Below are positions 5,763-53,843 of a stretch of DNA of 54,096 nt, piece after piece; within the stretch, counting starts at the first letter, position 1; each line of letters begins with the position of its first letter. The notes beneath the pieces are model-generated. The model ran no database searches and had not been told where the DNA came from. It worked only from the letters and a program-made list of their open reading frames with translations. A program made the position numbers and the translations under genes. The stretch is from an uncultured Weeksellaceae bacterium (GTDB taxonomy: Bacteria; Bacteroidota; Bacteroidia; Flavobacteriales_D; CAYVSK01), in assembly GCA_964453635.1 (NCBI GenBank), contig CAYVSK010000003.1, positions 7,922 to 62,017 on the forward strand, in the 5' to 3' direction.

Positions 5763-5791
5763 TGGATCAACTTAAGAACAGAAGCTCTGGT

Positions 5792-6424
5792 TCACAGAAT
5801 AGCTCCGATATAATCTCTTATCTGGAGGAGGAATCTCCACAACAAAGCATTTTCCAGGATGATCGTGAACACGAAGCCAAAGATCGCTCCCCAAAAATGT
5901 GCATCATGTGCAACGCTATCGGACATTCGTTTTTCCATGTACCGTTCATAGATCAAATAAAGAATACCAAAGATAAAGGCCGGGATCGGCACGGGTATCA
6001 GAAAAATATAGATCGCTGTTGTCGGGCTTATCAGGATGTGCGCAAAGAGGACGGCCGCCACTGCACCGGATGCTCCCACCGCGTTGTAAGAGGGGTCATC
6101 TCCATACTTTTTAAAGGAAGGGAGGGTAGCAAAGGCCATGCCTCCGAGATAAAGGATCAGGAAGTAGATCGTTCCGACGACCGGCTCGAACAAATTCTCA
6201 TGCTTGAAGAAGCTTTCAACATTGGAACCGAAAACGAAGAACACGAACATATTCACCAACAAATGGGGAAAAGAAGCGTGAACAAAGCCGTGTGTGATCA
6301 CCCGATGCCATTCCTTCCGTTGATAGCACTGCCAGGCATTGAATTGGAGTTTATAGAACAGATCCGGATTCGAAAAGGCCGAAAGGGAGATCAAAACGGT
6401 CAGGGCAATGAGGAAAATGGTCAT
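5792..6424 (-). CDS. rhomboid family intramembrane serine protease
   Basis: 210-aa polytopic ORF. It has HGFVHASFPHLLVNM (the H..N region), a catalytic GASGAV serine motif and a downstream AHDAHFWGAIFG histidine helix. Confidence 0.8.
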   Translation of the reverse strand: MTIFLIALTVLISLSAFSNPDLFYKLQFNAWQCYQRKEWHRVITHGFVHASFPHLLVNMFVFFVFGSNVESFFKHENLFEPVVGTIYFLILYLGGMAFATLPSFKKYGDDPSYNAVGASGAVAAVLFAHILISPTTAIYIFLIPVPIPAFIFGILYLIYERYMEKRMSDSVAHDAHFWGAIFGFVFTIILENALLWRFLLQIRDYIGAIL

Positions 6425-6455
6425 CCGGGTACCGTATAAAAAAGCTTCATTCCCT

Positions 6456-8012: not shown

Positions 8013-8087
8013 GGGGCGTGGGATCGAAAAGGGAAACAGGGTTCGCATGGAAGGGAACAAATCTAAGAACACCGATAGAAGAAGGGG

Positions 8088-12773: not shown

Positions 12774-12782
12774 GGTCACCAA

Positions 12783-12790
12783 CAAAGATA
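12783..12790 (-). promoter_or_regulatory. putative -7 promoter box TATCTTTG for the giant ORF
   Basis: The minus strand reads TATCTTTG-TTGGTGACC-ATG. This is an exact TAnnTTTG match 9 nt upstream of ATG 12773. Confidence 0.45.
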
Positions 12791-16575: not shown

Positions 16576-18681
16576 TTACTTCTCCCCGGGATCGTTTTCT
16601 TCATCCGGATCCGAACCCTCTTCACCTTCTTGTTCCTCATCTTCCTCCTTTTTGGAACCCGTCGTACCCTTCTTTTCCCCTTCTTCCTCTTCCATGGAGG
16701 ATTTAAGGTCGGACAGGGTGTTCAGGTCGCCAAGGGTCGTACGTTCAATGTTCTTGTTGACCTTGTTGACCGCTTTGCGTTGGGATTTCTCCTTGGCCTT
16801 CTCCTTTTTCTTTTTCTCCTTCTTCTCCTCTTCTTCCGCTTCCTCATGGATCCTGGAATGGGAGACAATGATCTTTCTTCCCCGTTTGTTGAACTCGAGC
16901 ACTTTAAAATCGAGTTCTTCCTCCACTTTAGCGGTCTCTCCGTCCTCCTTTTTCAAATGCTTGAGAGGCGCATAGCCTTCCACACCATAAGGGAGCATCA
17001 CCGTGGCCGTTTTGCCTTCTATGCTGGTGATCGTCCCCTTGTGAACGGAACCGACCGTGAAAACGCTTTCGAAGACATCCCAGGGATTCTCCTCGAGCTG
17101 CTTGTGTCCAAGGCTCAGTTTACGTTCCTCCTTATCGACCTCCAAGACGACCACCTGGAGTTCATCACCGACCTTACAGAATTCCGAGGGGTGTTTGATC
17201 CGCTTGGACCAGGAAAGGTCGGAAATGTGAACAAGGCCATCAACCCCTTCTTCCAATTCGACAAAGACACCGAAGTTGGTGAAGTTCCTGACCATGCCGG
17301 TGTGTTTGGAATCCACGGGATATTTCTCCTCAATATTCTCCCAGGGATCCGGTGTGAGCTGTTTCAGTCCAAGGGACATCTTTCGCTCCTCACGGTCCAG
17401 GGTAAGTATCTGAGCTTCGACCTCGTCCCCGACCTTCAGGAAATCCTGGGCACTTCGGAGGTGCTGTGACCAAGACATTTCAGAGACGTGGATCAATCCC
17501 TCGACCCCTGGCTGGATCTCAACAAAAGCTCCGTAATCAGCAAGAACGACCACTTTTCCTTTGACCTTGTCACCAACTTTCAGGTCGGGGTCCAGGCCAT
17601 CCCATGGATGCTCCTGTAATTGTTTGAGCCCAAGGGCTATACGTTTCTTTTCGTCATCGAAGTCCAGGATCACGACATTGATCTTTTGATCCAACTCGAC
17701 GACTTCTTCGGGGTGATTGATACGGCCCCAAGAGAGATCCGTAATATGGATCAGTCCATCCACCCCACCGAGGTCCACAAAAACCCCGTAAGAGGTAATA
17801 TTCTTGACCGTGCCCTCCAGGACCTGGCCCTTTTCCAGTCCCTGAATGATCTTTTTCTTCTGCTCCTCCAACTCAGCCTCAATAAGGGCCTTATGAGAAA
17901 CCACGACGTTCTTGAACTCTTTGTTGATCTTGACGACCTTGAAGTTCATTTCCTGCCCCACATAAGCATCGTAGTCCCGAATAGGCCGTACATCGACTTG
18001 GGAGCCCGGTAAAAAGGCCTCGATACCAAAGACATCGACGATCAACCCGCCTTTGGTCCGACACTTCACTTTGCCCGGGATCACTTCATCGTTCTCCATA
18101 GCTTGGTTAACTTTTTCCCAAGCCTTATGGGTCCGGGCCTTTTGATGAGATAAGACGAGCTGACCCGTGGAATCCTCCTGTTGTTCAACAAAAACATCCA
18201 CCTCATCCCCTTCTTGAAGGTCAGGATGATAACGAAATTCCGAAGCCGGGATCACCCCTTCGGATTTGTAACCAATATTGACCACGACCTCTTTCCGGGT
18301 CTTGGATACCACTTTGCCCTTGATGACCTCTTTTTCTCCGATCGAGGTCAGGGCTTGTTCATAAAGCTTGTCGAGCTCTTTTCGCTCTTCTTCCGAATAA
18401 TCGTCCACTTTGTCGGAATAGGAATCCCAATCGAAGGGCTCGTTCTTATCTTGGCCCCCTTGGTCCGGAAGATCGTCGCTATGAGCCACTTGCGTTGTGT
18501 TCGATGCTTCGTTCGTGCCCTGCTGGCTCTGGGAACCGGACACACCGGTACCTGCCGCATTCTCCTCCTTTTGCTCATCCCCTGAAGCATTTCCTTCGCC
18601 CTTCTCTTCAGGCGCATGTTCAGGAGCCTGAGCTTCGGACGTTGCTTTCTTCTCCGCTTGTTTTTTGTTTTCTTCAGCCAT
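16576..18681 (-). CDS. rpsA: 30S ribosomal protein S1 with low-complexity N- and C-terminal extensions
   Basis: 701-aa ORF with six S1/OB repeats (for example GKVVSKTRKEVVVNIGYKSEG, GTVKNITSYGVFVDLGGVDGLIHITDLSW, GKVVVLADYGAFVEIQPGVEGLIHVSEMSW). Confidence 0.9.
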   Translation of the reverse strand: MAEENKKQAEKKATSEAQAPEHAPEEKGEGNASGDEQKEENAAGTGVSGSQSQQGTNEASNTTQVAHSDDLPDQGGQDKNEPFDWDSYSDKVDDYSEEERKELDKLYEQALTSIGEKEVIKGKVVSKTRKEVVVNIGYKSEGVIPASEFRYHPDLQEGDEVDVFVEQQEDSTGQLVLSHQKARTHKAWEKVNQAMENDEVIPGKVKCRTKGGLIVDVFGIEAFLPGSQVDVRPIRDYDAYVGQEMNFKVVKINKEFKNVVVSHKALIEAELEEQKKKIIQGLEKGQVLEGTVKNITSYGVFVDLGGVDGLIHITDLSWGRINHPEEVVELDQKINVVILDFDDEKKRIALGLKQLQEHPWDGLDPDLKVGDKVKGKVVVLADYGAFVEIQPGVEGLIHVSEMSWSQHLRSAQDFLKVGDEVEAQILTLDREERKMSLGLKQLTPDPWENIEEKYPVDSKHTGMVRNFTNFGVFVELEEGVDGLVHISDLSWSKRIKHPSEFCKVGDELQVVVLEVDKEERKLSLGHKQLEENPWDVFESVFTVGSVHKGTITSIEGKTATVMLPYGVEGYAPLKHLKKEDGETAKVEEELDFKVLEFNKRGRKIIVSHSRIHEEAEEEEKKEKKKKEKAKEKSQRKAVNKVNKNIERTTLGDLNTLSDLKSSMEEEEGEKKGTTGSKKEEDEEQEGEEGSDPDEENDPGEK

Positions 18682-41049: not shown

Positions 41050-44000
41050 ATGGAGCAGATTCCCTTTCATAAAACCACCTCCGATTGGTTCAGGAAAATA
41101 TTTGGTACGCCCACAAACGTTCAGCAAGAAGCCTGGGAATCGATCGGGAGCGGTGAACACACCCTCCTTTCCGCACCAACGGGATCGGGCAAGACCCTGG
41201 CGGCCTTTCTTTCCGCGATCGACGACCTGGTAAAAAAAGCCCGAGCCGGGGACCTGACGGAAGAAACGCAGGTGCTCTATATCTCGCCCCTGAAAGCACT
41301 GAGCAATGACATTGCCACCAACCTACAGAAACCCCTGGAAGGGATCGACCATTCCCTTTTGCAGGAAGGAAAAGCTCCAGCAGGGATCACCACTGCGGTC
41401 CGGACCGGAGACACCCCCTCTTCCCGCCGATCTGCGATGACGGAGCACCCACCCCACATTCTCGTCACCACACCGGAATCGACCTACTTACTACTGACGA
41501 GCGACAAGGGCCGGAAACTTCTCTCGACCATAAGGACAGTCATCGTGGATGAAGTCCACGCTATTATAACCAGCAAACGAGGGTCTCATCTTGCCCTCAG
41601 CCTCGAACGCCTGGAAAGAGTTACTTCCAGCGTCCCTCAAAGAATCGGACTGTCAGCCACGCAAAAGCCGATCGAAAAAGTGGCCCGTTTCCTCTCCGGG
41701 GGAGAAAAAGAGAAAGACCGACCGTGCCGGATCATTGACCAGGGGCATGACCGTTCCATGGATCTGTCCATGGAGTTACCGGATTCCCCCCTTAGCAGCG
41801 TCATGTCAAACCAGGTCTGGAAAGAGGTCCTCACAAGGCTTGATCAACTCATCCGGGACCACGATACCACCATCATTTTCGTCAACACCCGCCGATTGGC
41901 CGAACGGCTCGCTGCTCAACTCGAAGAAAGCAGCGACGAAACACGCGTTACGGCACATCATGGAAGCATGTCCAAAAAAGCCCGGCAACGGGCAGAGGAA
42001 CAACTCAAGGAGGGAAACCTGAAAGCCCTCGTGGCCACCGCCTCACTCGAACTCGGGATCGACATCGGGTCGGTGGACCTCGTTTGTCAGATCGGGAGCT
42101 GCCGGGAAATATCCACCTTCCTTCAACGGATCGGAAGGTCCGGTCATACCCTAAAGCAGACCCCAAAAGGACGCCTTTTCCCGCTCACAAAGGACGAGCT
42201 CGTAGAAGGAACGGGACTTCTCTATGCCGTCCGGCAGAAACTCCTCGATTCCCTTTCTCTGCCGGAAAAACCACTGGACATTCTCGCTCAACAACTCGTC
42301 GCTGAAACGGCGAGTGGAGAGCAGACGGAAACGGAGCTTTACCAGATGGCAAAACGGGCTCACCCCTATAAAAGCCTTCGGAAAAAGGAATTCCAGGATG
42401 TTATCCAAATGCTGGCAGAGGGATTCACGACACGGAAAGGAAAAAGGGGGGCGCTCATTCATCACGACGAGATCAACGGCCGGATCCGTCCCCGCCGGAA
42501 AACACGGCTAACAGCCCTTACAGCGGGTGGAGCGATACCGGATCAGTTCGACATCGACGTGCTGGTGGAGCCGGACCATACCTTCATCGGAACGGTCAAC
42601 GAGGATTTCGCGACCGAAAGCATGGAAGGCGATGTTTTCCAGTTGGGCCATCGCTCCTGGCGTGTCCATGGCATGAGGAACGGCAAGCTTCATGTGGAGG
42701 ACGCCGGGGACCAACCCCCTTCGATTCCCTTCTGGTTCGGAGAAGCGCCGGGCAGAAGCCCCGAACTCTCCTCCTGTATTTCCTTCATTAGAGAACGGGT
42801 GAGCGATGAACTCGGAGAGGTACAACCCCTCGACAAAGCCACATCGGACGACAATGAAAGCAGTGTATTCCCCCAGAGCGGGCTGAACAGTGCCAGGGAG
42901 TGGCTCGATACTCATGCAGGGATCCCGAAAGATGCGGCAGAACAGGTGGTCGAATACCTGGCCACCGGAAAGGCCGCCCTGACCGCTCTTCCCTCAGAGA
43001 ACACCATCGTTCTGGAACGATTCTTTGATGAGGCGGGTGATATGCATCTGGTGATACATGCACCTTTCGGGAGCAGAATGAACAGGGCCTGGGGATTGGC
43101 CCTCCGAAAAAGATTCTGCCGAAAATTCAACTTTGAGCTTCAGGCCGCAGCCTCGGAGGATAGTATCGTACTTTCCCTGAGTACCAGTCACAGCTTCCCC
43201 CTGGAAGAAGTCTTTTCTTACCTGAAGCAAGAAACGGTCCGTGAAGTTCTTATTCAAGCCCTGCTTGACGCACCGACCTTCGAGATCCGTTGGCGATGGA
43301 ATGCCTCCCGCGCCCTTGCCATTCTTCGTCAAAAGGGAGGACAAAGGGTGCCCCCACAGATCCAACGAATGCACGCAGAAGACTTGATCGCCCAAATATT
43401 CCCCGATCAACTCGCTTGCCTTGAAAATATCGAAGGGGAACGGGAGGCACCGGACCATCCCCTTGTCGATCAGACCATTCACGATTGCCTTCACGAGGCT
43501 ATGGACATCGAGAAGCTCGAAAAGACCCTGGAGCGGATCGAGGCAGGAAATATGAAGCTCATTACACGAGATCTCCGGGAACCCTCACCCCTCGCTCAGG
43601 AGATCCTGAATGCTCGACCGTATGCTTTTCTTGACAATGCACCTGCCGAAGAACGGCGGACCAATGCGGTCCGGGCTCGCTCCAGAATGGAACTCCATGA
43701 AGCTGCAAAAGCCGGTGAACTCGACCCCGGAGCCATCGAGAAAGTGGTCGAGGAAGCCCGACCACCTGTACGTAGTGCCGATGAACTTCACGACGCATTA
43801 AGGATCGCCGGTGGTTGGGAGGAAGCGGAAGTCAACGAAAAGGGGTGGTCCGCTTGGCTCAGGGAATTGACCAGGGAAGGAAGAGCTTTTTGCTGGAAAA
43901 CGCCGAAAGGACATTCCATGTGTTTCGCCATGGAAGATCAAAAAAAGATAGCGGCAGCGTTTTCCGAAAAAAATGATACCACCGGAGAAAACGCACGAAC

Positions 44001-45378
44001 GGACCTGATCCGCGGATATCTGGAGATCAGCGGACCGATAACGACCGACGAACTGGCCACAAGATGGGGATTCCAGGCGGACCTGACCGAACGGGCCCTC
44101 CTTCGACTGGAACAGGAGGGGAGCGTGATCCGGGGATCTCTCACCACTGGACAGGGACCGACAGAATGGTGCGAACGAGGCCTCCTTGCCCGGATCCACC
44201 GATACACTCTCCAAGATCTGAGAAATACCATTGAGCCCGTAACGCCGGCGGACTACATGCGCTTTCTTTTTCACTGGCACAACCTCGACGGGTCAGATAA
44301 GCCGGATGGCCCCGAAGCGCTCAGATCCGTTGTCGACAAAATGGAAGGATTCCAGGCCCAGGCCGCGGCATGGGAAGAAGAACTACTCCCCGGTCGCCTG
44401 GCGAGTTACGACCATATCTGGCTCGACACTCTCTGTTTATCAGGACAGACCCTATGGGGAAAACTTCACGGGACCAACAATGGAGACCAGGATCAAACAA
44501 AGCGCCCCATCCGGACCACCCCCCTCACCATCGTAAAACGCGATGCCTTTGATGCCTGGCACAAAAACGGGGGCGAACCCGCTCAGTTATCGAACGAAGC
44601 GGAAAGGGTCCGCAACTTCCTCCGGGAAAAGGGAGCCTCTTTCTTCGATGAGATCAAAAGCGGCACGAACCTGTTCCCCGAAAAAGCGGAACAGGGGTTG
44701 AGCGAGCTCGTTTCCAAGGGACTGGCAACATCCGACAGCTTCACTGGGCTAAGAGCCCTCCTAATAGACCGGAAATTCAAGACCAAAAAGGGCAAGGAAC
44801 GGAACCGCATCCCTTTTACAATGGCCAACGCCGGCAGATGGACACTTTTAAAAAACGGCCCCAAAGAGCACCTCGAAAAGGATGAGGAAGCAGGTGTCGA
44901 ACACATTGCAAGGACCTTGCTGAAACGCTACGGGGTCGTATCCCGAAGGACCCTGACGCGCGAACCCAACCTGGTCAACTGGGGACGCTTGCTCCGCCTC
45001 TATCGCAAACTCGAAGCGCGTGGGGAGATCCGAGGAGGTCGCTTCATCGCTGGGGTCCAAGGTGAACAATTCGCCCTCCCGGAAGTGGTGAACACCCTGC
45101 GAAGGATCCGGGACGAAGAAAAAGCCGGGACCCTCGTCTCGATCAATGCAACAGATCCCCTGAACCTTACCGGCATTATGACCCCTGAAAAAAGGATCCC
45201 AGCCATTCATACCAATCGCATCCTTTACCGGGACGGTGTGCCCGTGGCGGGAAAAGAAGGAAAAAAGATCCGTTTCTTTGTCGACGTCGATGAGCGCGAA
45301 GCAGCGCGATTCCGGAAACATCTCAAAAGGCGCCCTGTTCCCGGGACTCTGAGAAGCTACTTGAAGCTAACGGGATAA
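41050..45378 (+). CDS. lhr: long-form Lhr-family ATP-dependent DNA helicase
   Basis: 1,442-aa ORF. It has APTGSGKT, VDEVH, SATQ and HHGSMS, a DEAD/H-associated region and a large C-terminal extension as in E. coli-type Lhr. Confidence 0.85.
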   Translation: MEQIPFHKTTSDWFRKIFGTPTNVQQEAWESIGSGEHTLLSAPTGSGKTLAAFLSAIDDLVKKARAGDLTEETQVLYISPLKALSNDIATNLQKPLEGIDHSLLQEGKAPAGITTAVRTGDTPSSRRSAMTEHPPHILVTTPESTYLLLTSDKGRKLLSTIRTVIVDEVHAIITSKRGSHLALSLERLERVTSSVPQRIGLSATQKPIEKVARFLSGGEKEKDRPCRIIDQGHDRSMDLSMELPDSPLSSVMSNQVWKEVLTRLDQLIRDHDTTIIFVNTRRLAERLAAQLEESSDETRVTAHHGSMSKKARQRAEEQLKEGNLKALVATASLELGIDIGSVDLVCQIGSCREISTFLQRIGRSGHTLKQTPKGRLFPLTKDELVEGTGLLYAVRQKLLDSLSLPEKPLDILAQQLVAETASGEQTETELYQMAKRAHPYKSLRKKEFQDVIQMLAEGFTTRKGKRGALIHHDEINGRIRPRRKTRLTALTAGGAIPDQFDIDVLVEPDHTFIGTVNEDFATESMEGDVFQLGHRSWRVHGMRNGKLHVEDAGDQPPSIPFWFGEAPGRSPELSSCISFIRERVSDELGEVQPLDKATSDDNESSVFPQSGLNSAREWLDTHAGIPKDAAEQVVEYLATGKAALTALPSENTIVLERFFDEAGDMHLVIHAPFGSRMNRAWGLALRKRFCRKFNFELQAAASEDSIVLSLSTSHSFPLEEVFSYLKQETVREVLIQALLDAPTFEIRWRWNASRALAILRQKGGQRVPPQIQRMHAEDLIAQIFPDQLACLENIEGEREAPDHPLVDQTIHDCLHEAMDIEKLEKTLERIEAGNMKLITRDLREPSPLAQEILNARPYAFLDNAPAEERRTNAVRARSRMELHEAAKAGELDPGAIEKVVEEARPPVRSADELHDALRIAGGWEEAEVNEKGWSAWLRELTREGRAFCWKTPKGHSMCFAMEDQKKIAAAFSEKNDTTGENARTDLIRGYLEISGPITTDELATRWGFQADLTERALLRLEQEGSVIRGSLTTGQGPTEWCERGLLARIHRYTLQDLRNTIEPVTPADYMRFLFHWHNLDGSDKPDGPEALRSVVDKMEGFQAQAAAWEEELLPGRLASYDHIWLDTLCLSGQTLWGKLHGTNNGDQDQTKRPIRTTPLTIVKRDAFDAWHKNGGEPAQLSNEAERVRNFLREKGASFFDEIKSGTNLFPEKAEQGLSELVSKGLATSDSFTGLRALLIDRKFKTKKGKERNRIPFTMANAGRWTLLKNGPKEHLEKDEEAGVEHIARTLLKRYGVVSRRTLTREPNLVNWGRLLRLYRKLEARGEIRGGRFIAGVQGEQFALPEVVNTLRRIRDEEKAGTLVSINATDPLNLTGIMTPEKRIPAIHTNRILYRDGVPVAGKEGKKIRFFVDVDEREAARFRKHLKRRPVPGTLRSYLKLTG

Positions 45379-46713
45379 AGCCATAGCACTGGCCTCCCCT
45401 TTTCGCCATTTCAATAGTTCCCAGAATAAGGCAGCATAGACAATGGTGTATTCCAGACCAAGCAACCAAGGGTCTTCAGTATAAGCCGGTGTTCGGTAGG
45501 CCGAATAACTGAGAACCGCTGTTAATGACCAGAATATGGGAAACCGAAAACGCGAAATAACAGAAAGCCCGACAAGGGGCGTTATGTACCACGAATGAAC
45601 CGTCGTTGAAAGAAAAAGGTGAAGGGCAAGGGCCAGCAAGAAAGCCTGCGGAAGCACCTTGTCCCTTTCAACCCGAGCACCAAAAGCCAGGCCGAACACC
45701 CCCAGAAAGGTCAATCCGGACAATAGCGGCGCCATGGTGGCGATCATGTTGTATCCTACAGTTTCAAGACCGATCCAGCGAACGAGATAATAAATACTGG
45801 CATTGAACTCGAAACTTTGAAAATACAATTCCAGCCCCGACCCAAAGTTTCGGATAGCATCCATCGAGAGAAAAGGAAGGAAAAGGACCCCAATGCCCAG
45901 ACCGACCACGGCAAAATACACCAGGGACCTCCACCCCAGACGACGGACCATGAAAGGCATCAGCATCAGGGGAATAAGTTTGACCGCAACCGCACCGGCC
46001 AATGAAAATGCCGACCCCATATAACGCCCCTGATAAAGCAGATAGATCCCTCCGAGAACAAAAGCAAGCATGAGCGCTTCAAAATGCAAATTTCCGGTCA
46101 ATTCGATGATGACCAACGGATTCAAGGCATAGAACAGAACACTCCGTATCCCCACACCCAAGCGGGTGGCCAATTTTCCAAGAAGGACCAGGTTCACCCA
46201 TTCGGCGGCCAGGATAAAGACCCGGAGCACAACAGCGTGCATGAACCAGCTTTTCCCCGAAATGATGGAAGCGACCCCGAACATGAATTGATCCACGGGC
46301 GGATATACGGTATGGTAAGCGGGGGAGTTGAGCCTTTCGAAAAGCCGCTCATTCAAGCCCATGGCATCACCCTTATCGGTACCCACAAGGGCTTTGGGCA
46401 TGAATTCGTAGGGATTCATGCCATTCGCCAGTATCCGGCCATCCCAAATGAAGCGATAGATATCATCACTCAGGTTCGGGAACATGAAAAGCAGGACCAA
46501 ACGAAGGAACATCCCCAGAAACAGGATTTCCCTCCACTGAAAGGTGATCCCCTTATGGAAATAAAGGGTCCCGGCACAACCGAAGGCAGCTCCAAAAAGA
46601 AGGAAAAGTTGGACCGTCTCCGTTCGGGAAGTGAAATACCCCAACACGATCAAAAAGACCGACAGAAGCCCCCCGAGCAGGACCTTGACTTTATCCGGAT
46701 AAGAGCGGCTCAT
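45367..46713 (-). CDS. polytopic membrane glycosyltransferase, GT-C-like (DUF2029/GT87-like)
   Basis: 448-aa ORF with many TM helices. The first-loop acidic motif (NLSDDIYRFIWDGRILANGMNPY) resembles polyprenyl-phosphate-sugar-dependent GT-C enzymes. Confidence 0.5.
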   Translation of the reverse strand: MSRSYPDKVKVLLGGLLSVFLIVLGYFTSRTETVQLFLLFGAAFGCAGTLYFHKGITFQWREILFLGMFLRLVLLFMFPNLSDDIYRFIWDGRILANGMNPYEFMPKALVGTDKGDAMGLNERLFERLNSPAYHTVYPPVDQFMFGVASIISGKSWFMHAVVLRVFILAAEWVNLVLLGKLATRLGVGIRSVLFYALNPLVIIELTGNLHFEALMLAFVLGGIYLLYQGRYMGSAFSLAGAVAVKLIPLMLMPFMVRRLGWRSLVYFAVVGLGIGVLFLPFLSMDAIRNFGSGLELYFQSFEFNASIYYLVRWIGLETVGYNMIATMAPLLSGLTFLGVFGLAFGARVERDKVLPQAFLLALALHLFLSTTVHSWYITPLVGLSVISRFRFPIFWSLTAVLSYSAYRTPAYTEDPWLLGLEYTIVYAALFWELLKWRKGEASAMALSR

Positions 46714-46794
46714 GAATATTCCATAGGAATAAAGGACCCTTCGTAAGAAAAACCCGCCTGTACCGAGAAAAACACAGGAGCCAAAGTCCTTGCT

Positions 46795-48273
46795 TTAACG
46801 GGTATGTTTATAGGAATAATAAAAAACATACCCAAAACCGAGGGTAAGCATCACATGAAAGGGCAAGAGACCAAAATCCCCGAGGTGAAAAGCCAACCAG
46901 ATCCCACTGAAAAAATAAAGGGTGATAACCCCTTCGAGCAGGGTCAGGAGATCGATGCTCTTGATCCGATACTTGTTGCCCTTCCAGCTATCCGTCACCC
47001 GTTTGATATTGAACTTCGGGGTCCGGATAAAGGAAGTCCGTTTCCCCACGTACCCTTCGAAAACGGCAACAGCGTTATGGAGTGACATCCCCATAGAGAC
47101 CGAGAGGAACATGGGAAAGCGCTTCAGAAAGACCAAGGCCCTTTGGCCCGTATGGGAGAGCTCTCGGACCAGGGAGGTCCAATAAAAGACGGCGAGAAGA
47201 ACAAGGCTCATAATAAAGAAAGACCCCACCTTGAAAAGCAGCGCATATTCCGGATAAAGATCCTTAATAAAAAGGACGGGGATGCTGAGCATCGATATAC
47301 AAAATATGCAAATGAAGAGAAAGCTGTTCATAAGGTGAAAGATGGCATGAACTTTCGTCCGGAAGCTGAAATTTCCTGTTTTCAGGACTTTCGGAAGGTT
47401 TTTCCGGGCACATTCAGCAGCACCTTTGGTCCACCGGAATTGTTGGGTCTTTAGAGCGTTCATAGCAGCGGGTAGTTCGGCAGGGGCTCCCGTGTCTTCC
47501 CTGAAGACGAAGCGCCATCCCTTAAGCTGGGCACGATAGCTCAGATCCAGGTCCTCCGTTAAGGTATCATCCATCCAACCACCCGCATCATCGATGCAGG
47601 CTTTTCTCCAGACCCCTGCGGTGCCATTGAAATTCATGAAATGCCCCCCACTGTTCCGGCCCATTTGCTCCACGGAAAAATGGGCATTGAGCCCAAAAGC
47701 CTGCATACGGGTCAAAGAGGAGTAATGCTCATTAATATGCTCCCAGCGGGTTTGAACGACCCCGACAGAATCATCCTTGAAAGCCGGCAGGGTCTTCCTT
47801 AGAAAATTCCGGGGCGGAATGAAATCAGCATCGAAAACAGCGATAAAGTCCCCTTTCGCGAAGCTGAGTCCGTGAGCCAGGGCGCCGGCCTTGAAGCCTT
47901 TCCGGTCGGTCCGGCGGACATGTTGAATGTCCAGGCCTTTACGTTGCCAGTGGTCGATCCTTTCAGCCGCCACATCCACGGACTCATCAGTTGAATCATC
48001 GAGGACCTGGATCTCCAGGCATTCCTTCGGGTAATCGAAGGAAGCGACGGCATCGATCAGGCGCTCGACCACGTAATACTCATTGAAGACGGGTAGCTGG
48101 ACCGTAACAACAGGGGCCTCTTCATCTTTAAGAACAGGAGCTGACTCCGTTCCTCGCTGCTTTTTATGACGACGATAACGGAGGTATTGGATCACCAGGT
48201 CCAATTGGATCAGGCTGTAAAAAAAGATAAAGGAAAGAAAGACCCCGTATATGATCAGCACGAATAAAACCAC
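46795..48273 (-). CDS. membrane-embedded family 2 glycosyltransferase, processive type (QxxRW)
   Basis: 492-aa ORF with a GTG start. Motifs VQLPVFNE, VLDDSTD, FDADF, TEDLDLS and QQFRWTKG, flanked by TM segments. Confidence 0.75.
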   Translation of the reverse strand: MVLFVLIIYGVFLSFIFFYSLIQLDLVIQYLRYRRHKKQRGTESAPVLKDEEAPVVTVQLPVFNEYYVVERLIDAVASFDYPKECLEIQVLDDSTDESVDVAAERIDHWQRKGLDIQHVRRTDRKGFKAGALAHGLSFAKGDFIAVFDADFIPPRNFLRKTLPAFKDDSVGVVQTRWEHINEHYSSLTRMQAFGLNAHFSVEQMGRNSGGHFMNFNGTAGVWRKACIDDAGGWMDDTLTEDLDLSYRAQLKGWRFVFREDTGAPAELPAAMNALKTQQFRWTKGAAECARKNLPKVLKTGNFSFRTKVHAIFHLMNSFLFICIFCISMLSIPVLFIKDLYPEYALLFKVGSFFIMSLVLLAVFYWTSLVRELSHTGQRALVFLKRFPMFLSVSMGMSLHNAVAVFEGYVGKRTSFIRTPKFNIKRVTDSWKGNKYRIKSIDLLTLLEGVITLYFFSGIWLAFHLGDFGLLPFHVMLTLGFGYVFYYSYKHTR

Positions 48274-48276
48274 GAA

Positions 48277-48969
48277 CTAAAGGTGTTTGAACAAGGTATA
48301 AAGGATCTTATGACCAGCCATTACGGTTCCCTTCACGGTCCCGGCGATCTTGGAATGCCCGATCCTTTGCCGGTAATCAACGGGGACCTCTTTACAGGCG
48401 AGTCCTTTTTTGGCGGCTTTCAACTGCATTTCCACGGTCCATCCATAATCAGGATCCCGCATGCCGATATCCCGGAGCCGATCGTAGCGGATCGCCCGGA
48501 AAGGGCCGAGATCCGTGAAACGCACCCCGTAAAGGAGGCGAAGCAAACGCGTGGCCAACCAATTCCCGAAGCGTTGCTGGGGAAGCATGGCCCCTTCTTC
48601 GCGATCACCAAGGGCACGGGACCCGATCACCAGATCCTTCCCCGCTTCCTCGATCGGTTCGATCAAACGCTCCATTTGTTCAGGCCGATCGGAACGATCC
48701 GCATCAAGGAAGACCACGATATCGGGCTTATCATTCCGTTCGTTCAGATACGCCAAGCCCTTTAAACACGCGGAACCGTATCCCTTCCGCGGTTCCCGCA
48801 ACACCCGTGCACCTCCTTCTTCTGCCACTGCCCCCGTACGGTCCGTCGAAGCATTATCCACCACGATGACCTCCCGCACCAAGCCCCAAGGGATCGCCTT
48901 TAAGACCTCGGGGAGTGAAGTCTCTTCATTCTGGGCCGGAATGATGACATCTATGACGCTTCTTTTCAA
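48277..48969 (-). CDS. soluble family 2 glycosyltransferase, polyprenyl-phosphate-sugar synthase-like (DPM1/ArnC/GtrB catalytic domain-like)
   Basis: 230-aa ORF with a TTG start. Motifs VIIPAQNE, VVDNASTD and FLDADRSD. No TM segment. It lies 3 nt upstream of the next GT2 gene. Confidence 0.7.
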   Translation of the reverse strand: MKRSVIDVIIPAQNEETSLPEVLKAIPWGLVREVIVVDNASTDRTGAVAEEGGARVLREPRKGYGSACLKGLAYLNERNDKPDIVVFLDADRSDRPEQMERLIEPIEEAGKDLVIGSRALGDREEGAMLPQQRFGNWLATRLLRLLYGVRFTDLGPFRAIRYDRLRDIGMRDPDYGWTVEMQLKAAKKGLACKEVPVDYRQRIGHSKIAGTVKGTVMAGHKILYTLFKHL

Positions 48970-49028
48970 AAATACAGTGCCTTGCCCCCTCTCTTTTTTT
49001 TATCGGTTGAACACCCCTGCCCCATCTT

Positions 49029-50399
49029 TTAGCCTTTGACGTTGGGATTGAGCTCTATACTTTCATTGCCGACCATAATGGGTTCACTACTCACCTTGCT
49101 GCCGGCTGGTCCGTTCTCGAGGTTCAGGACCCCTCTTGGGCAGACCGTGGCACACATGCCACAACCAACACAGGATGCCCGTACGATGTTCTGACCCCGC
49201 TGAGCGTACCACTTCACGTCGATCCCCATCTCACAATACGTGGAACAATTCCCGCAGGATATGCATTGCCCCCCGTTCGTCGTGATCCGAAAACGGGAAA
49301 AGAATTTTTGCTGTAATCCCAGAATCGCCGCCATCGGACACCCGAAGCGGCACCATACGCGTGTGCCCATCAAAGGATAGAAACCCACGCCCACAACACC
49401 CTGCCAAATGGTCCCGATGAAGAAGCCATAGGTCCACCTGAAATCATCCGAGAACGCCCCGAAAAAACTCCCCTTGTAAACATCGTCGATCCATAACAGA
49501 GAAGTAACAACGACCACGAAGACGAGAACGAGGTGGATCGACCAACGCTCGAACTTCCAAGCAGCCAACGACTTATCTGACAAATGGCGCCAGGGGTCAC
49601 CGACCGTATTGGCCAAACCACCACACCCGCAAACCCAGGAACAATACCAACGCTTGCCGTAAAAATAAGTAAGGATCGGGGTCACGATGAAGGTCATCGC
49701 AGCTCCCCAAAAGACCATAAAGACCCCGAGCGTACCACTATCGGTAAGGGACCCGACGGTTGAGGGAAAGAGATATTTGTGTTCCAGCGGCCAGAAATAG
49801 GAGAAATAAAAGCCAGGTTGCTGAAATGCCTGCAGAATATTGGGGATCAAAAAGGCGAAGGCCAGCTGAAAGAACATAACAGAAGCGGTCCGTATGATCT
49901 GATAATTGGAATGACGGTATTTCAGGATGGCTTTGACCCCCATGACCAGAATGCCCAGGGTGTAGATCGTCCCGTAGAGAAACCACTGATCGGCCTTTTG
50001 TCCGGATATCATGTAGCTCAAGGGGTCCATGGCCCGCACCATACCGTCAAGGGTCCCCGGGAACCAATAAATGAGCACATAAAAACCCGTCAGCACAATG
50101 CCCAGCATCCAACCTGCTGAACCGCGTGAAGTAAGGGAGCGATGCCAGGTATGGTCATTCTTTACCCCGGCACTTTCCCCTTTATAAAAACTATATATAT
50201 AGAGCAGACCACCGCCGGTGCCCAGGCCGATACTCAGGAAAAAGAACATCCACGGGGCGTAGTTGGAAGCGCCCGTCCAGGCCACGAGCAAGAACAACAG
50301 ACCGATCGAAAAGATGGCCAGCCCCCATTGCTGGCCTTTGTTCATACCTTCAGGATTTGGATTGCCGAGACTTATGGATGGATTGCTTTTATTCGTCAT
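49029..50399 (-). CDS. NapH/NosH/CcoG-type polytopic membrane polyferredoxin (2x[4Fe-4S])
   Basis: 456-aa ORF with multiple TM helices. It has CX3C motifs (CSWVCG and CRFGCP) and two ferredoxin motifs (CISCGNCSTYCE and CVGCGMCATVCP). Confidence 0.7.
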   Translation of the reverse strand: MTNKSNPSISLGNPNPEGMNKGQQWGLAIFSIGLLFLLVAWTGASNYAPWMFFFLSIGLGTGGGLLYIYSFYKGESAGVKNDHTWHRSLTSRGSAGWMLGIVLTGFYVLIYWFPGTLDGMVRAMDPLSYMISGQKADQWFLYGTIYTLGILVMGVKAILKYRHSNYQIIRTASVMFFQLAFAFLIPNILQAFQQPGFYFSYFWPLEHKYLFPSTVGSLTDSGTLGVFMVFWGAAMTFIVTPILTYFYGKRWYCSWVCGCGGLANTVGDPWRHLSDKSLAAWKFERWSIHLVLVFVVVVTSLLWIDDVYKGSFFGAFSDDFRWTYGFFIGTIWQGVVGVGFYPLMGTRVWCRFGCPMAAILGLQQKFFSRFRITTNGGQCISCGNCSTYCEMGIDVKWYAQRGQNIVRASCVGCGMCATVCPRGVLNLENGPAGSKVSSEPIMVGNESIELNPNVKG

Positions 50400-50419
50400 A
50401 ACACCGAGTTTTACAGGCC

Positions 50420-51760
50420 CTAATGGCCCATCAAAAGGCTGAAGAGCCCCTTTTTGGCCTTCACCTTTAGCGCCTTGCCCGTTTCTGCGTTGAACTTCTC
50501 AATGATCTCGGGTTCGTGCTGTTTGTAGAACTCCGGATCAAAGTTCGCTTTGGGGAGCTCCTCCATCACCTCATCGATGTGCTTGCCCTCCTTGATCCAC
50601 TGGTCACAAAGTTCATGGCGGAAGCGGATCCCCAAAAGATTGAATGCGATCACGCTGCCATCGTGCTTATCCCAGACCACCCGAAAACACTTCTTCCCCC
50701 TTTCGTGTTCCCAATAAAAGCTTTCCTCGTTCTCCCGGGCTTCGGGCAATACCCAGCCGTAGGTCTGGTATTCGATATCGAAGAATTTGGCCGAGTTGAA
50801 CCATATTCCCGGCTTGTATTCGGTCCGGTCACCGCATATGGTGTGGGCCACGATCTCCCCGTGGATCTTCCCGGTGTACCAGACCTGCTCAACAGGGGGG
50901 CGTCTTCCCGGGGGATCGCGAAATTCCGCACAATCCCCGACCGCATAGACATTTGGCACGTTGGTCTCAAAACAGCGATTCACGAGGATCCCCTTGTTGG
51001 TCTCGACCTCGGAATTTTTCACGATATCGACCTTGGGATGCACCCCGGCGGTCAATCCGACGAACTGGCAATCGATGCTCTGCCCATCCTTCGTGATCAC
51101 CCTTTCCACGCGACCCAATTCATCCCCCTCTATGCGGTCCAGTTCCGTCTCAAGGCGAAGATCGACACCGTGCTCCCGAATATGACGGCATATCAACGAA
51201 CCCTCTTCCGGAGGAAGGACCTTGCCCCAATAGCGATCCTCACGGATGAGAAACGTGACGGGAATGTTCCGGGTATGCAGCATTTCCGCCATTTCAACAC
51301 CGATGAGCCCACCTCCCACGATCACGGCCCGATCAACCCTTCCCCTCGTGTTCTGTTCCATGAGCTCCAGGTCCTGATAGCTGTACAAGCCTTGTACACC
51401 ACTCAGGTCCTGACCGGGCCATCCGAACTTGTTGTAGCTCGAACCGAGCGCCAGGATCAGATCATCGTAAGCCATTACCTTCTCGTTGGCCAGATAGAGG
51501 CGTTTCTCCTCCGTGTCGATCCGATCGACCCAACCCCGCATCAGTTCGATCCGGTTCTTTTCCCAGAACCAGTCCTCGTAAGGCTTGGTCTCCTCGTAAG
51601 TGAGGTGCCCCATGTAAATGTACATAAGGGCCGTACGGGCGAAGAAATGCTCGGTCTCATCGGAGATCACGGTGATGCGGTGATCGCTCATCTTTCGGAT
51701 ATGCCTGGCGGCCGTAATACCCGAAACCCCGTTGCCGATGATCACGACGTGTTTACTCAT
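50420..51760 (-). CDS. NAD(P)/FAD-dependent oxidoreductase (ferredoxin/rubredoxin-reductase-like flavoprotein)
   Basis: 446-aa ORF with a FAD fold (VVIIGNGVSGITAA), a second dinucleotide fold (AVIVGGGLIGVEMAE) and YAVGDCAE. No redox-active CxxxxC pair is visible. Confidence 0.75.
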   Translation of the reverse strand: MSKHVVIIGNGVSGITAARHIRKMSDHRITVISDETEHFFARTALMYIYMGHLTYEETKPYEDWFWEKNRIELMRGWVDRIDTEEKRLYLANEKVMAYDDLILALGSSYNKFGWPGQDLSGVQGLYSYQDLELMEQNTRGRVDRAVIVGGGLIGVEMAEMLHTRNIPVTFLIREDRYWGKVLPPEEGSLICRHIREHGVDLRLETELDRIEGDELGRVERVITKDGQSIDCQFVGLTAGVHPKVDIVKNSEVETNKGILVNRCFETNVPNVYAVGDCAEFRDPPGRRPPVEQVWYTGKIHGEIVAHTICGDRTEYKPGIWFNSAKFFDIEYQTYGWVLPEARENEESFYWEHERGKKCFRVVWDKHDGSVIAFNLLGIRFRHELCDQWIKEGKHIDEVMEELPKANFDPEFYKQHEPEIIEKFNAETGKALKVKAKKGLFSLLMGH

Positions 51761-52001: not shown

Positions 52002-52913
52002 ATGCCGAAAGCGAGTTCCCCCGCATATCGCAAAAAGCTGACCTTCGTTCTCCTGCTGCTCCTCCTGAGCACCTTTCCTTTTCCAAGCAACCCCCAGAAC
52101 GATCCGGAACTCCAGGACTATACCCCCTCTACCCTTCTGGAAAAAGGCGCGTGGGAATTCAAGCATTTCAACAATCTCTACACCCAGACAGCCTCTTTTG
52201 ACCATGCGGGCAATGTACGGGAGGATCCACTTCGGGCGAATTATTTCTCCTCCATCAACGAATTCCTGTACGGGGTCGGGAATCGGGTGAACCTCGGGCT
52301 CGAGGTATGGGGGGAATCCGTCCTTCTGAACCAACGAAATGACAGCCCCTTTGAAGCCCTTACCTTTCCGGGTGGCAGCCAGAACAGGTCGGCCGTGACC
52401 GGCATCGGCCCCCGCATCAAAATTGCGCCTCTATCCTCCCTCCCCGGCTTTTCAATAGAAAGCACCATCCTTATCCCAGCCGCCAGGGACCTGGAAGGGA
52501 GAAACCGCTCCGAACCCTTCCTGTCGGGTGATCATTTCCAATGGATCACCGACCTCTATTACGACCATTCCCTGAACGATCGATTTCAATTCTTTTTCCG
52601 ACTCTCTCCCTGGTTGAGCATCGACCGCGACCTCGAGGGAAAGACCGATCGCTTCGAGAGCCCCGCGAGCATTTTTTTCAATTGGTTCTCAACAGATCGC
52701 CTAACCTTCTATCTTCAGAACGAATTCTGGCCAACCTACGGAACGGAGGAGGCCATTTCAGCCTACTTCCTACAACAAGGGATCGGGGCCAAATACACCC
52801 TGATCCCGGGGCGTCTGGAACTGGAAACACTCTACACCCGCTTTACCCTTGGGAAGAACGCCGGGGCGGGTATGACTTACAACATCGGCCTGAGATGGCT
52901 CGGCGGCCCTTAA
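52002..52913 (+). CDS. hypothetical exported protein, outer-membrane beta-barrel-like
   Basis: 303-aa ORF. Signal peptide (RKKLTFVLLLLLLSTFPFP). Strand-like aromatic/Gly-rich segments throughout. The C-terminal strand is MTYNIGLRWLGG. Confidence 0.5.
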   Translation: MPKASSPAYRKKLTFVLLLLLLSTFPFPSNPQNDPELQDYTPSTLLEKGAWEFKHFNNLYTQTASFDHAGNVREDPLRANYFSSINEFLYGVGNRVNLGLEVWGESVLLNQRNDSPFEALTFPGGSQNRSAVTGIGPRIKIAPLSSLPGFSIESTILIPAARDLEGRNRSEPFLSGDHFQWITDLYYDHSLNDRFQFFFRLSPWLSIDRDLEGKTDRFESPASIFFNWFSTDRLTFYLQNEFWPTYGTEEAISAYFLQQGIGAKYTLIPGRLELETLYTRFTLGKNAGAGMTYNIGLRWLGGP

Positions 52914-52958: not shown

Positions 52959-53843
52959 TCAGCGCCTGAGCCCAAAACCGGTAAAGGACACATATCCCAC
53001 CAAAACGGCAAGCCCGAGATCGACCATCCCCATTCCTAAGGCAATGAAGAGATGCATGAGGACACCAATACCGAGGAAGGGCTTACGCCATACATCGCTC
53101 CAAATGAGTATCGGAAAGAGCAGCTGAAAAAGGATGACAAAATAATTCCCGGAGACCATGAGCCATTCCTGTTGGATCAGGTTCTCCCGTATCCAGGGAT
53201 GGGAGAACTGAGGAATGGCAAGGGAATAATAAAGTCCCTCCCCCTTCAGCCATTGGGGACTCACCAATTTGTGCCCCACCGCTCCCACATACATGAACAA
53301 GACCTGTAAGCGAATGGCCCATAGGCCGGTATTGCTCAATACATTGCCTACCTGGTTCCTGAAGCGGGAAGGATCCCCGGATGGCCCTTCCTTCAAAAGG
53401 ACCTGATAAAGGATGAAGAACTGGATCAGGGACAAACCGGCATGACGCGATTGCCAAAGGGACTCGTAGAGCGGAAAGGTCGTCAGCAATACAGCCAGGG
53501 CACTAAGCCTGGGCGCCTTTCCGAAAAGGCCGAGGATCAGAGCGATGAGCTGAACACCGATGAAGACGGGATACCAATCGCGATAACCCGGGATGGAAAG
53601 AAAGATGGGAAGATCCCCCAGTTCCGAAAGGTTGTCCACACGAGCCGGGACGATCAGAGACCCGGCCCCCCACAGGTCCCCCATGATCGGCAGAAAAAAA
53701 AGCGTATTGAGGAGCAGGAAAATGTACAGCGCCCGCCGGAAAGGGACCCCGAAGGAGCGCCACCGGTTTTGCTCAGCCCATTTAACAAGCCACTTGTCGA
53801 TGTCCTTCCAAACGTTCATCGCAGATCTATCCATCAGTGCCAT
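52959..53843 (-). CDS. polytopic membrane protein (possibly HTTM / vitamin-K-dependent-carboxylase-like fold)
   Basis: 294-aa ORF with about 7 hydrophobic helices. The HTTM assignment is an impression from topology and N-terminal helix context only. Confidence 0.35.
   Translation of the reverse strand: MALMDRSAMNVWKDIDKWLVKWAEQNRWRSFGVPFRRALYIFLLLNTLFFLPIMGDLWGAGSLIVPARVDNLSELGDLPIFLSIPGYRDWYPVFIGVQLIALILGLFGKAPRLSALAVLLTTFPLYESLWQSRHAGLSLIQFFILYQVLLKEGPSGDPSRFRNQVGNVLSNTGLWAIRLQVLFMYVGAVGHKLVSPQWLKGEGLYYSLAIPQFSHPWIRENLIQQEWLMVSGNYFVILFQLLFPILIWSDVWRKPFLGIGVLMHLFIALGMGMVDLGLAVLVGYVSFTGFGLRR

Follow-up and report, generated by a model that had tools for sequence, protein, structure and literature searches.

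A redox pair and a glycosyltransferase trio encoded side by side: two conserved gene modules in an uncultured Weeksellaceae bacterium and other Bacteroidota

A small family 2 glycosyltransferase (GT2) that makes a polyprenyl-phosphate-sugar, combined with a membrane glycosyltransferase of the GT-C type that uses it, is the logic of Ppm1/PimE, ArnC/ArnT and GtrB/GtrC. Redox enzymes can be encoded close to such GT-C enzymes: in mycobacteria dprE1/dprE2 adjoin aftA-embCAB, which places a flavin adenine dinucleotide (FAD) enzyme and an NADH-dependent reductase beside GT-C users of a polyprenyl-phosphate pentose. Here we consider a block of five minus-strand genes in a 54,096-nucleotide (nt) stretch of DNA from an uncultured Weeksellaceae bacterium (assembly GCA_964453635.1, contig CAYVSK010000003.1, positions 7,922 to 62,017; 'the window' below means this whole stretch), in which a flavoprotein and a membrane polyferredoxin (the pair, or module A) are encoded next to a 230-amino-acid (aa) GT2, a larger membrane GT2 and a GT-C protein (the trio, or module B). 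The same families adjoin in dozens of loci, so the arrangement is more than chance, and the block is a real, conserved gene set that probably serves an undescribed pathway. It is two conserved modules within a larger neighbourhood linked to ArsS-family genes, not one closed system. The explanation we favour, with a probability of roughly 45%, is that many Bacteroidota keep these two separable modules side by side for the sake of a shared pathway, where some step on a lipid-linked or ArsS-type sugar would draw its reducing power from the pair.

Full-text searches of the literature found no description of this gene set or of the combination of pair and trio, and the combination appears to be undescribed, each component coming from a known superfamily. 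An earlier note on this DNA had gone further, knowing of no described pathway in which such a glycosyltransferase set is joined to an electron-transfer pair. As a statement on this particular combination that stands, but as a general one it does not, for the mycobacterial locus joins redox enzymes to polyprenyl-phosphate-sugar and GT-C enzymes. The mycobacterial case shows that the genes for a redox step on a lipid-linked sugar can lie next to those of the GT-C enzymes using it; arsenosugars, to which we return below, are ribose derivatives too. The likeness between the two loci is one of analogy only, without homology: DprE1 and DprE2 are a vanillyl-alcohol-oxidase-type flavoenzyme and a short-chain dehydrogenase, whereas here a Pyr_redox_2 protein accompanies a membrane [4Fe-4S] protein.

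Recurrence and reshuffling of the pair and the trio

The list of open reading frames (ORFs) bears out the layout given by the earlier note, namely five minus-strand genes (Table 1) separated, in the order of transcription, by 20, 59, 3 and 81 nt. Its five family assignments agree with Pfam and NCBIfam scans; none of the five proteins reaches an equivalog-level NCBIfam cut-off for a named enzyme. In gene orders below, FAD, PolyFd, sGT2, mGT2 and GTC denote the flavoprotein, the polyferredoxin, the 230-aa GT2, the membrane GT2 and the GT-C protein, and related loci carry L numbers.

Table 1. Coordinates of the five-gene block and of neighbouring or unusual features in the window
Feature	Coordinates	Strand	Length	Family, motif or remark
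FAD/NAD(P)H flavoprotein, ferredoxin-reductase type, cytoplasmic	50420-51760	-	446 aa	Pyr_redox_2
NapH/CcoG-like polytopic membrane polyferredoxin	49029-50399	-	456 aa	Fer4_5 + dicluster 4Fe-4S
Soluble GT2, polyprenyl/dolichyl-phosphate hexose synthase-like	48277-48969	-	230 aa, TTG start	PF00535
Membrane GT2 synthase, BcsA/PgaC type	46795-48273	-	492 aa, GTG start	D,D,D,QQxRW, FxRTPK loop
GT-C fold membrane glycosyltransferase, MptA/MptB/PimE (GT87-like)	45367-46713	-	448 aa	MptB NF038066
Possible outer-membrane protein, no family assignment	52002-52913	+	303 aa	divergent from flavoprotein gene
Helicase ORF	41050-45378	+	1442 aa	read as Lhr-type by size and helicase motifs
Membrane ORF upstream of block	52959-53843	-	294 aa	SdpB-family (HTTM-like), below cut-off
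Large ORF in strand-asymmetric region	8088-12785	-	1565 aa	

A scan anchored on the polyferredoxin and limited to a single genome for each species yielded at least 591 relatives, of which the best 80 loci were analysed. In 78 of these 80 loci the gene immediately upstream of the polyferredoxin gene is that of the flavoprotein, the other two ending at a contig edge. After the flavoprotein, the most frequent neighbours were proteins of the sGT2 type (27 loci by joint clustering), mGT2 (22), GT-C (16) and DUF547 proteins (15), all others being found in 10 loci or fewer, and at least two trio genes lay within 10 kb in 21 of the 80. The reverse scan, made in metagenomes with an alignment of 17 large-GT2 orthologues as the query, returned 80 loci, 54 of them at about 48% identity or more; 46 of the 54 carry at least two trio genes, and in at least 25 of the 46, many of whose contigs are short, the pair is directly upstream. 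In about eight mGT2 loci whose upstream sequence extends over 2.4 kb or more, the trio is present and the pair is not. Counted by core order, FAD-PolyFd-sGT2-mGT2-GTC was found in 21 loci, FAD-PolyFd-sGT2-mGT2 in 14 and FAD-PolyFd-mGT2-sGT2-GTC in 10, while the pair stood alone in 52 and sGT2-mGT2-GTC alone in 14. The sGT2 and mGT2 genes thus adjoin in either order, and the adjacency of pair and trio survives both this inversion (21 and 14 loci against 10) and insertions. Consistent separation of the pair from the trio in related genomes, which the earlier note had named as an outcome that would speak against its proposal, is not what these loci show. Its picture of a self-contained five-gene system, on the other hand, has to be given up, given the loci with one module alone and a conserved neighbourhood that is larger than the block, with DUF547 genes and an ArsS/ArsM set.

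All taxon-labelled loci that have the pair with at least two trio genes are from Bacteroidota, namely Chitinophagaceae, Sphingobacteriales (including Pedobacter and Daejeonella), Hymenobacter and Algoriphagus. The pair without the trio nearby was found in Pontibacter, two Flavobacteriales metagenome-assembled genomes (MAGs), Rhodothermales and all other phyla; polyferredoxin loci came also from Krumholzibacteriia, Armatimonadota and one Myxococcales MAG. Pair and trio are 2-7.5 kb apart in Hymenobacter and on different scaffolds in Pontibacter sp. FD36.

The coupling is tightest in L161, the closest relative with a long contig (its polyferredoxin is 70% identical), where the order is ArsM-FAD-PolyFd-sGT2-mGT2 with frames overlapping or abutting, the PolyFd and sGT2 ORFs among the overlapping ones; after mGT2 come an insert on the opposite strand, the GT-C gene and a 206-aa TehB-like methyltransferase gene (17340-17960) that abuts or overlaps the end of the GT-C gene. 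Trio ORFs abut or overlap also in L162, L163 and L165, and the overlapping frames in L161, L162 and L163 argue for translational coupling in these relatives. Beyond Bacteroidota, genes for GT-C, a 311-aa protein, an unknown 446-aa protein, FAD and PolyFd follow one another tightly on one strand in a MAG of Thermodesulfobacteriota (L035), and in a Latescibacterota MAG (L048) both GT-C and a TIGR04283-like GT2 are no more than 3 kb away from the pair. The 311-aa protein of L035 resembles, by eye, the inositol-monophosphatase family.

Could the adjacency be nothing but synteny inherited within Bacteroidota and without functional meaning? That every taxon-labelled locus with the full pair and trio belongs to this phylum, and that both modules also occur alone, would fit such a view, which we nonetheless consider highly improbable: the arrangement spans Chitinophagia, Sphingobacteriia, Cytophagia and Flavobacteriia-like contigs, in two gene orders and with varied inserts, the pair, the trio and the ArsS set described below recombine in all pairwise combinations, and the linkage of GT-C to the pair is found outside the phylum. 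The sequence comparisons favour a functional link over inherited synteny because of the two gene orders, the overlapping frames in the close relative and the GT-C gene beside the pair in two other phyla.

The five genes of the window are likely co-transcribed. Folding of the 59-nt and 81-nt gaps is no better than that of shuffled sequence (z -0.63 and -0.84), and two weak hairpins picked up in the 81-nt gap by a consensus scan were rejected as intrinsic terminators, there being no excess of folding over shuffled sequence. A sigma-70 scan gave 4 sites against 6.3 expected by chance, with a consensus that is not applicable to Bacteroidota. The Bacteroidota -7 motif TAnnTTTG has one minus-strand copy in the block, at 48974-48967 in the 59-nt gap, and 14 on that strand window-wide. 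It was rejected as an internal promoter; since part of it falls within the TTG start codon of the small-GT2 gene, it cannot drive that gene, and its presence is probably coincidental.

A more serious rival takes the pair for an autonomous, general NAD(P)H-driven membrane redox module, perhaps a quinone reductase or a source of reductant for envelope thiol or methionine-sulfoxide repair, which would lie near the trio through co-regulated envelope and stress functions without sharing any chemistry with it. The breadth of its distribution speaks for this possibility, the pair being 55-68% identical across many phyla without the trio nearby, yet where the neighbours of the pair are counted, trio genes are the commonest. 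NapH-type proteins are quinol-linked, which suits a quinone reductase; the redox centres of the pair, however, all look cytoplasmic from hydropathy and loop charges, and a delivery of electrons to the periplasm is not evident. Some neighbours also speak for a module of this kind: DUF547 proteins with lipoprotein-type leaders precede the pair in 15-19 loci, in Chitinophagaceae homologues of MsrB and MsrA with similar leaders also precede it, and in Dadabacteria and Thermodesulfobacteriota it is found with rhodanese, SufE-like and IscU-like genes. What such a module would leave unexplained is the overlap of the PolyFd and sGT2 ORFs in L161, an adjacency that outlasts inversion of the GT order, and the linkage of GT-C to the pair in two other phyla. 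We regard it as rather unlikely, and retain adjacency for the sake of one pathway as our preferred reading.

Two of these contexts can be specified further. MsrB-/MsrA-like ORFs (identified by eye) with lipoprotein-type leaders, together with DUF547, closely precede the flavoprotein gene in the same orientation in L013, L019, L023 and L028 (~6000-8600; Chitinophagaceae, Daejeonella). In L053, L054, L062-L064, L066 and L035 (~5300-8650), genes for a two-domain rhodanese, a SufE-like protein, an IscU-like protein and a conserved 444-aa protein, the last without a Pfam or NCBIfam family, precede the pair. This second conserved context comes from MAGs of Dadabacteria, Thermodesulfobacteriota and Spirochaetia and appears to be connected with sulfur or Fe-S metabolism.

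The five proteins and their predicted activities

In Pfam the flavoprotein matches Pyr_redox_2 (173 bits) and Pyr_redox (69 bits); no NCBIfam equivalog cut-off is reached. The best solved relatives are ferredoxin-NAD+ reductases, first TodA (3ef6, 5.5e-31), then BphA4 and putidaredoxin reductase, and coenzyme A (CoA)-disulfide reductases are also among them. Across 91 orthologues the dinucleotide motifs GNGxxG (9-14) and GGGLIG (149-154) are kept, the only conserved cysteines are C231 and C277, with no CxxxxC redox disulfide, and conservation in the C-terminal domain reaches F411; a hydropathy scan gave zero transmembrane (TM) segments. The protein thus combines the features of a disulfide-less ferredoxin-NAD(P)+ reductase, that is, a Pyr_redox_2 fold, two GxGxxG motifs and no CxxxxC, and with both dinucleotide motifs present and the disulfide motif absent it resembles a ferredoxin reductase rather than one that acts on disulfides. 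Fold, cofactor motifs and the lack of a redox disulfide are shared with TodA, BphA4, putidaredoxin reductase and rubredoxin reductase (solved relatives at 1e-31 to 1e-19), but the partner of the protein here is a membrane polyferredoxin, theirs a soluble [2Fe-2S] ferredoxin or rubredoxin. It differs from reductases of oxygenase systems also in that no oxygenase gene lies near the block.

The polyferredoxin matches Fer4_5 and dicluster Fer4 families in Pfam. Against the NapH/MauN profile TIGR02163 it scores 53.4 bits, the cut-off being 213, with residues 242-428 alone aligning, and an identification as NapH was rejected on this ground; the CcoG/FixG cupric reductase was also rejected, as the Pfam scan found no FixG_C (Ig-like) domain. 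The chain ends about 30 residues past the second cluster. Invariant in 38 orthologues are C253-x3-C257-x-C259, C350-x3-C354-P355, C379/C382/C385/C389 and C410/C413/C416/C420-P421; the first motif reads C253-x3-C257-G-C259, the second is a canonical CX3CP, and both CX2CX2CX3C motifs are complete. The hydropathy scan gave at least six TM segments, and the topology that we infer from hydrophobic segments and loop charges has about eight TM helices, with the termini, both Cys motifs and the two [4Fe-4S] clusters in the cytoplasm, which fits a cytoplasmic flavoprotein as partner. The AlphaFold2 (AF2) model (mean predicted local distance difference test score, pLDDT, 62.7; Fe-S domain below 50) was not used for fold searching. 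Relatives in Bacteroidota, Rhodothermales, Ignavibacteria, Calditrichia, Latescibacterota, Dadabacteria, Thermodesulfobacteriota and Spirochaetota are 55-81% identical to the polyferredoxin; for the 80 loci analysed above, identity to the window protein is 55-68%, a high level for a membrane protein.

With NapH of the NapGH system and with CcoG/FixG the polyferredoxin shares a polytopic membrane domain with cytoplasmic Cys motifs, including CX3CP, followed by two [4Fe-4S] clusters. It differs from them in its predicted eight or so TM helices, where they have 4-5, in a first motif of the form CX3CxC and in lacking FixG_C, and the gene that constantly goes with it encodes a cytoplasmic NAD(P)H flavoprotein instead of NapG or a protein of cbb3 oxidase assembly. 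No recurrent Nap-like family (NapG/NapA, MauM) was present among the neighbour clusters of the polyferredoxin. The constant adjacency of the two genes and their frequent ORF overlap suggest that electrons pass from the flavoprotein to the polyferredoxin.

As to the trio, the small GT2 has the GT2 domain PF00535 (87 bits in Pfam), a GT-A domain with a D89-A-D91 (DxD) motif in which D91 is at least 90% conserved, and zero TM segments by hydropathy. Its NCBIfam scores are highest for archaeal dolichyl-phosphate hexose transferases, AglJ (116 bits, cut-off 325) and the Halo-type enzyme (71, cut-off 375), followed by PpgS (49, cut-off 370) and ArnC (25, cut-off 529); AglJ itself was rejected, its cut-off being unmet. 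The best solved relative is dolichol-phosphate mannose (DPM) synthase (5mlz, 2.6e-10). By these relationships the protein would transfer a sugar to polyprenyl phosphate.

The affinity to dolichyl-phosphate enzymes, and an electron path that ends at the membrane, are what might lead one to see in the pair a reductase of the lipid carrier, turning polyprenyl phosphate into a dolichol-like form, or a reductase of a lipid-linked keto-sugar as DprE2 is, in either case tailoring the donor of the GT-C enzyme; the dprE1/dprE2-aftA-emb locus would be its precedent. Yet the pair is not homologous to SRD5A3/DFG10, to geranylgeranyl reductases or to DprE1/DprE2, its flavoprotein being of the Pyr_redox_2 kind, it is widespread where the trio is not nearby, and we know of no saturated polyprenols in Bacteroidota. 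We give this idea very little credence in comparison with a supply of reducing power to a lipid-linked or ArsS-type sugar step.

The large GT2 scores 88 bits for Glyco_tranf_2_3, 68 for Glyco_trans_2_3 and 36 for GT21 in Pfam, where no PilZ domain was matched. NCBIfam gives 117 bits for PgaC (cut-off 422) and 107 for CelA (cut-off 699), so far under the cut-offs that both names were rejected; the best solved relative is BcsA (8.8e-24). D91/D92/D95, D147/D149, E239/D240 and Q276-Q277-x-R279-W280 are invariant in 17 orthologues, as is the loop F414-x-R416-T417-P418-K419, and the hydropathy scan found four hydrophobic segments. The D,D,D,QxxRW signature that the earlier note read in this protein is accordingly real and conserved, as is the SDDIYRFIWDG loop of the GT-C protein, in which D84, R87, F88, W90, D91 and G92 are invariant in 40 orthologues and D83 nearly so. 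With BcsA, PgaC and NodC the large GT2 has in common D,D,D,Q(Q/R)xRW, C-terminal TM helices and an FxxTxK-like loop; it differs in its length of only 492 aa, in lacking PilZ and in falling far below the PgaC and CelA cut-offs. Distant relatives (L132-L160, 43-48% identity) follow genes for MiaB (by eye), a tetratricopeptide-repeat (TPR) protein, a sigma-54 regulator (by eye) and LptE, the other four genes of the block being absent from this conserved string, which has a housekeeping look; the context suggests a role of the large-GT2 family connected with the outer membrane or lipopolysaccharide (LPS).

For the GT-C protein, NF038066 (MptB) matches with 51.7 bits at a cut-off of 40, over residues 73-230 and profile positions 148-300 of 553, there is a precomputed Pfam match to PF26314 (MptA_B_family), and Pfam GT87 stays at 18 bits, below its cut-off of 25. 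Ten TM segments were found by hydropathy. Sequence and profile searches of the PDB gave no match, only the fold search succeeding: an AF2 model (pLDDT 93, predicted TM-score, pTM, 0.92) matched in Foldseek, at probability 1.00 and TM-scores of 0.51-0.65, Gpi14 (9wno), ALG6 (6snh), PimE (9dm7/9dm5) and ALG3 (9s6r). The predicted structure confirms the GT-C fold, and its top matches are without exception GT-C enzymes that use lipid-phosphate-sugars. The earlier note had compared the small GT2 and the GT-C protein to Ppm1/PimE-like systems, and the model agrees well with this comparison.

What the trio has in common with Ppm1 plus PimE/MptA/MptB, with ArnC/ArnT and with GtrB/GtrC is the combination of a small GT2 related to DPM/PPM synthases with a polytopic GT-C protein, and the GT-C model superposes on PimE, Gpi14 and ALG3 and has the acidic first periplasmic loop. 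Unlike in those systems, a BcsA-like membrane GT2 invariably comes in as the third enzyme, a flippase of the GtrA type was not seen, and there is linkage to an electron-transfer pair and to ArsS-family genes. The sugar is probably mannose, judging from the MptB profile match, from DPM synthase as the nearest solved relative of the small GT2, from the structural match of the GT-C model to the mannosyltransferases Gpi14, PimE and ALG3 and from GH113 (beta-mannanase family) neighbours; against taking mannose as settled, the glucose enzyme ALG6 matches the model just as well. By analogy with these relatives the donor of the GT-C enzyme might be polyprenyl-phosphate-mannose.

Some variants and neighbours of the trio may be added. 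In L113 (1377-3218) the GT-C orthologue has 613 aa and carries a C-terminal S-adenosylmethionine (SAM)-methyltransferase domain, and in L070 and L072 the GT-C form is 700 aa long, with an additional, unclassified domain at its C terminus. A GH113 gene (156 bits) lies beside the block in 13 loci on marine contigs, upstream of the flavoprotein gene and on the opposite strand (including L085, L088, L090, L095, L096, L098, L104-L106, L110 and L117), a position that recalls the endoglucanase genes of cellulose-synthase operons.

The ArsS gene set and a possible pathway

The larger neighbourhood of the block in its relatives contains a set of genes to which NCBI attaches the name 'arsenosugar biosynthesis', with NCBIfam scores all well above the family cut-offs: the radical-SAM protein ArsS (TIGR04167, 443 bits), an AhpD-like protein (TIGR04169, 197 bits), a small GT2 (TIGR04283, 218 bits), a DUF2064 protein (TIGR04282, 212 bits), a purine nucleoside phosphorylase (PNP; NF006054, 330 bits) and an arsenosugar-type ArsM (NF038099, 566 bits). 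Also recurrent near the block are rhodanese, DUF547, a protein of the fatty-acid-hydroxylase family and the GH113 hydrolase. In L114, L121 and L124 one strand carries AhpD-like, ArsS, rhodanese, TIGR04282, PNP, ArsM, DUF547, TIGR04283, FAD, PolyFd, sGT2, mGT2 and GT-C. L162 (Pontibacter russatus) has sGT2-mGT2-GTC followed by convergent genes for DUF2461, DUF2064, rhodanese, ArsS, an AhpD-like protein and DUF2064, with no pair within 10 kb; in L163 the trio is divergent from ArsS and DUF2064, in L164 GT-C stands beside AhpD-like and ArsS genes, and in L165 FAD-PolyFd-DUF6265-trio is accompanied by convergent DUF2064, ArsS and AhpD-like genes. The ArsS set, the flavoprotein and polyferredoxin (with DUF547 in some loci) and the trio therefore recombine in every pairwise combination, which is the pattern of a functionally linked gene set.

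Compared with the ArsM/ArsS arsenosugar pathway of Synechocystis, the block or the trio of the relatives is in one string with, or directly beside, genes of the ArsS set, whereas the window itself carries pair and trio with no ArsS-set gene. To our knowledge, the steps of arsenosugar and arsenolipid formation after ArsS have not been established. One might then conjecture that pair and trio are the missing membrane part of this bacterial pathway. ArsM, ArsS, PNP, DUF2064 and TIGR04283 would make an activated 5-deoxy-5-dimethylarsinoyl-ribose, the pair would be the reductase that keeps methylated arsenic trivalent or feeds ArsS, and the trio would fix the arsenosugar, or a glycan carrying it, to a lipid or the envelope, an ordinary sugar taking its place in genomes like that of the window. 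The one-string loci and the pairwise reshuffling are consistent with such a role, but none of the five window proteins falls in an NCBIfam family named for arsenosugars, and we consider the conjecture in this full form quite unlikely.

Let us return to the favoured reading, one pathway served by two separable modules, and assume that the pair and the trio act together. Then the cytoplasmic flavoprotein would oxidise NAD(P)H, its FAD becoming reduced, and the electrons would move on to the two cytoplasmic [4Fe-4S] clusters of the polyferredoxin and from there to an acceptor at or in the inner membrane. The small GT2 would charge polyprenyl phosphate with a hexose, of which mannose seems the likeliest, the BcsA-like GT2 would synthesise and translocate a beta-linked glycan or glycolipid, and the GT-C enzyme would take the lipid-linked sugar on the periplasmic face and extend or decorate that product. 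The five genes would thus encode the membrane-proximal part of a route from a cytoplasmic sugar to an envelope-bound glycoconjugate. A redox-modified glycolipid, one of the candidates put forward in the earlier note, would be a guess. The sugar might be an ordinary one or of the ArsS type, that is, derived from 5-deoxyribose and, perhaps even in this genome, carrying arsenic, and the reducing power of the pair might either keep a substrate reduced or feed the radical-SAM enzyme of the ArsS set.

Several considerations weigh against this reading. Glycosyl transfer as such requires no electrons. The loci in which one module stands alone, the 52 with the pair including ones from Pontibacter, Flavobacteriales, Rhodothermales and many non-Bacteroidota phyla, mean that neither module needs the other next to it. 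ArsS, AhpD-like, DUF2064, PNP, ArsM, TIGR04283, DUF547 and rhodanese genes were all absent by tblastn from the 54-kb window, which shows only 2.3 kb upstream of the block. The context of rhodanese, SufE-like, IscU-like and 444-aa proteins in Dadabacteria and Thermodesulfobacteriota suggests for the pair a generic role as electron donor. Moreover, the locus counts are probably not phylogenetically independent, many of the metagenome loci coming from related marine Flavobacteriia.

If the link between the modules is functional, it would define a redox-dependent step in the synthesis of bacterial envelope glycoconjugates, give a role to a polyferredoxin-flavoprotein pair that is very widespread, strongly conserved and without a curated family, and supply candidate genes for the steps after ArsS in the formation of arsenosugars and arsenolipids. 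The cultured carriers Hymenobacter, Algoriphagus, Pontibacter and Pedobacter make the link testable.

Flanks of the block in the window

At its downstream side the block meets a convergent helicase gene, which the 3' end of the GT-C gene overlaps by 12 nt; because of this convergence nothing of the system lies downstream of GT-C in this genome. On the other side the window shows only 2.3 kb upstream of the block. The divergent 303-aa ORF found there gave no match in Pfam and NCBIfam scans. Its homologues (cluster c36, 29-34% identity) are placed likewise with respect to the flavoprotein gene in L037, L085, L110 and L117 and often adjoin the GH113 gene, so that it may be an outer-membrane protein of the neighbourhood; we see it as a loosely associated neighbour, with a weak case for membership in the system. 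The 294-aa membrane ORF beyond it, whose SdpB-family (HTTM-like) match of 26 bits is below the cut-off, was rejected as a member, no related locus having a homologue. Far from the block, the region 8001-12000 shows a strong strand asymmetry (AT skew -0.53 and -0.43, GC skew -0.29) that is unusual against the rest of the window and coincides with the 1565-aa minus-strand ORF of Table 1.

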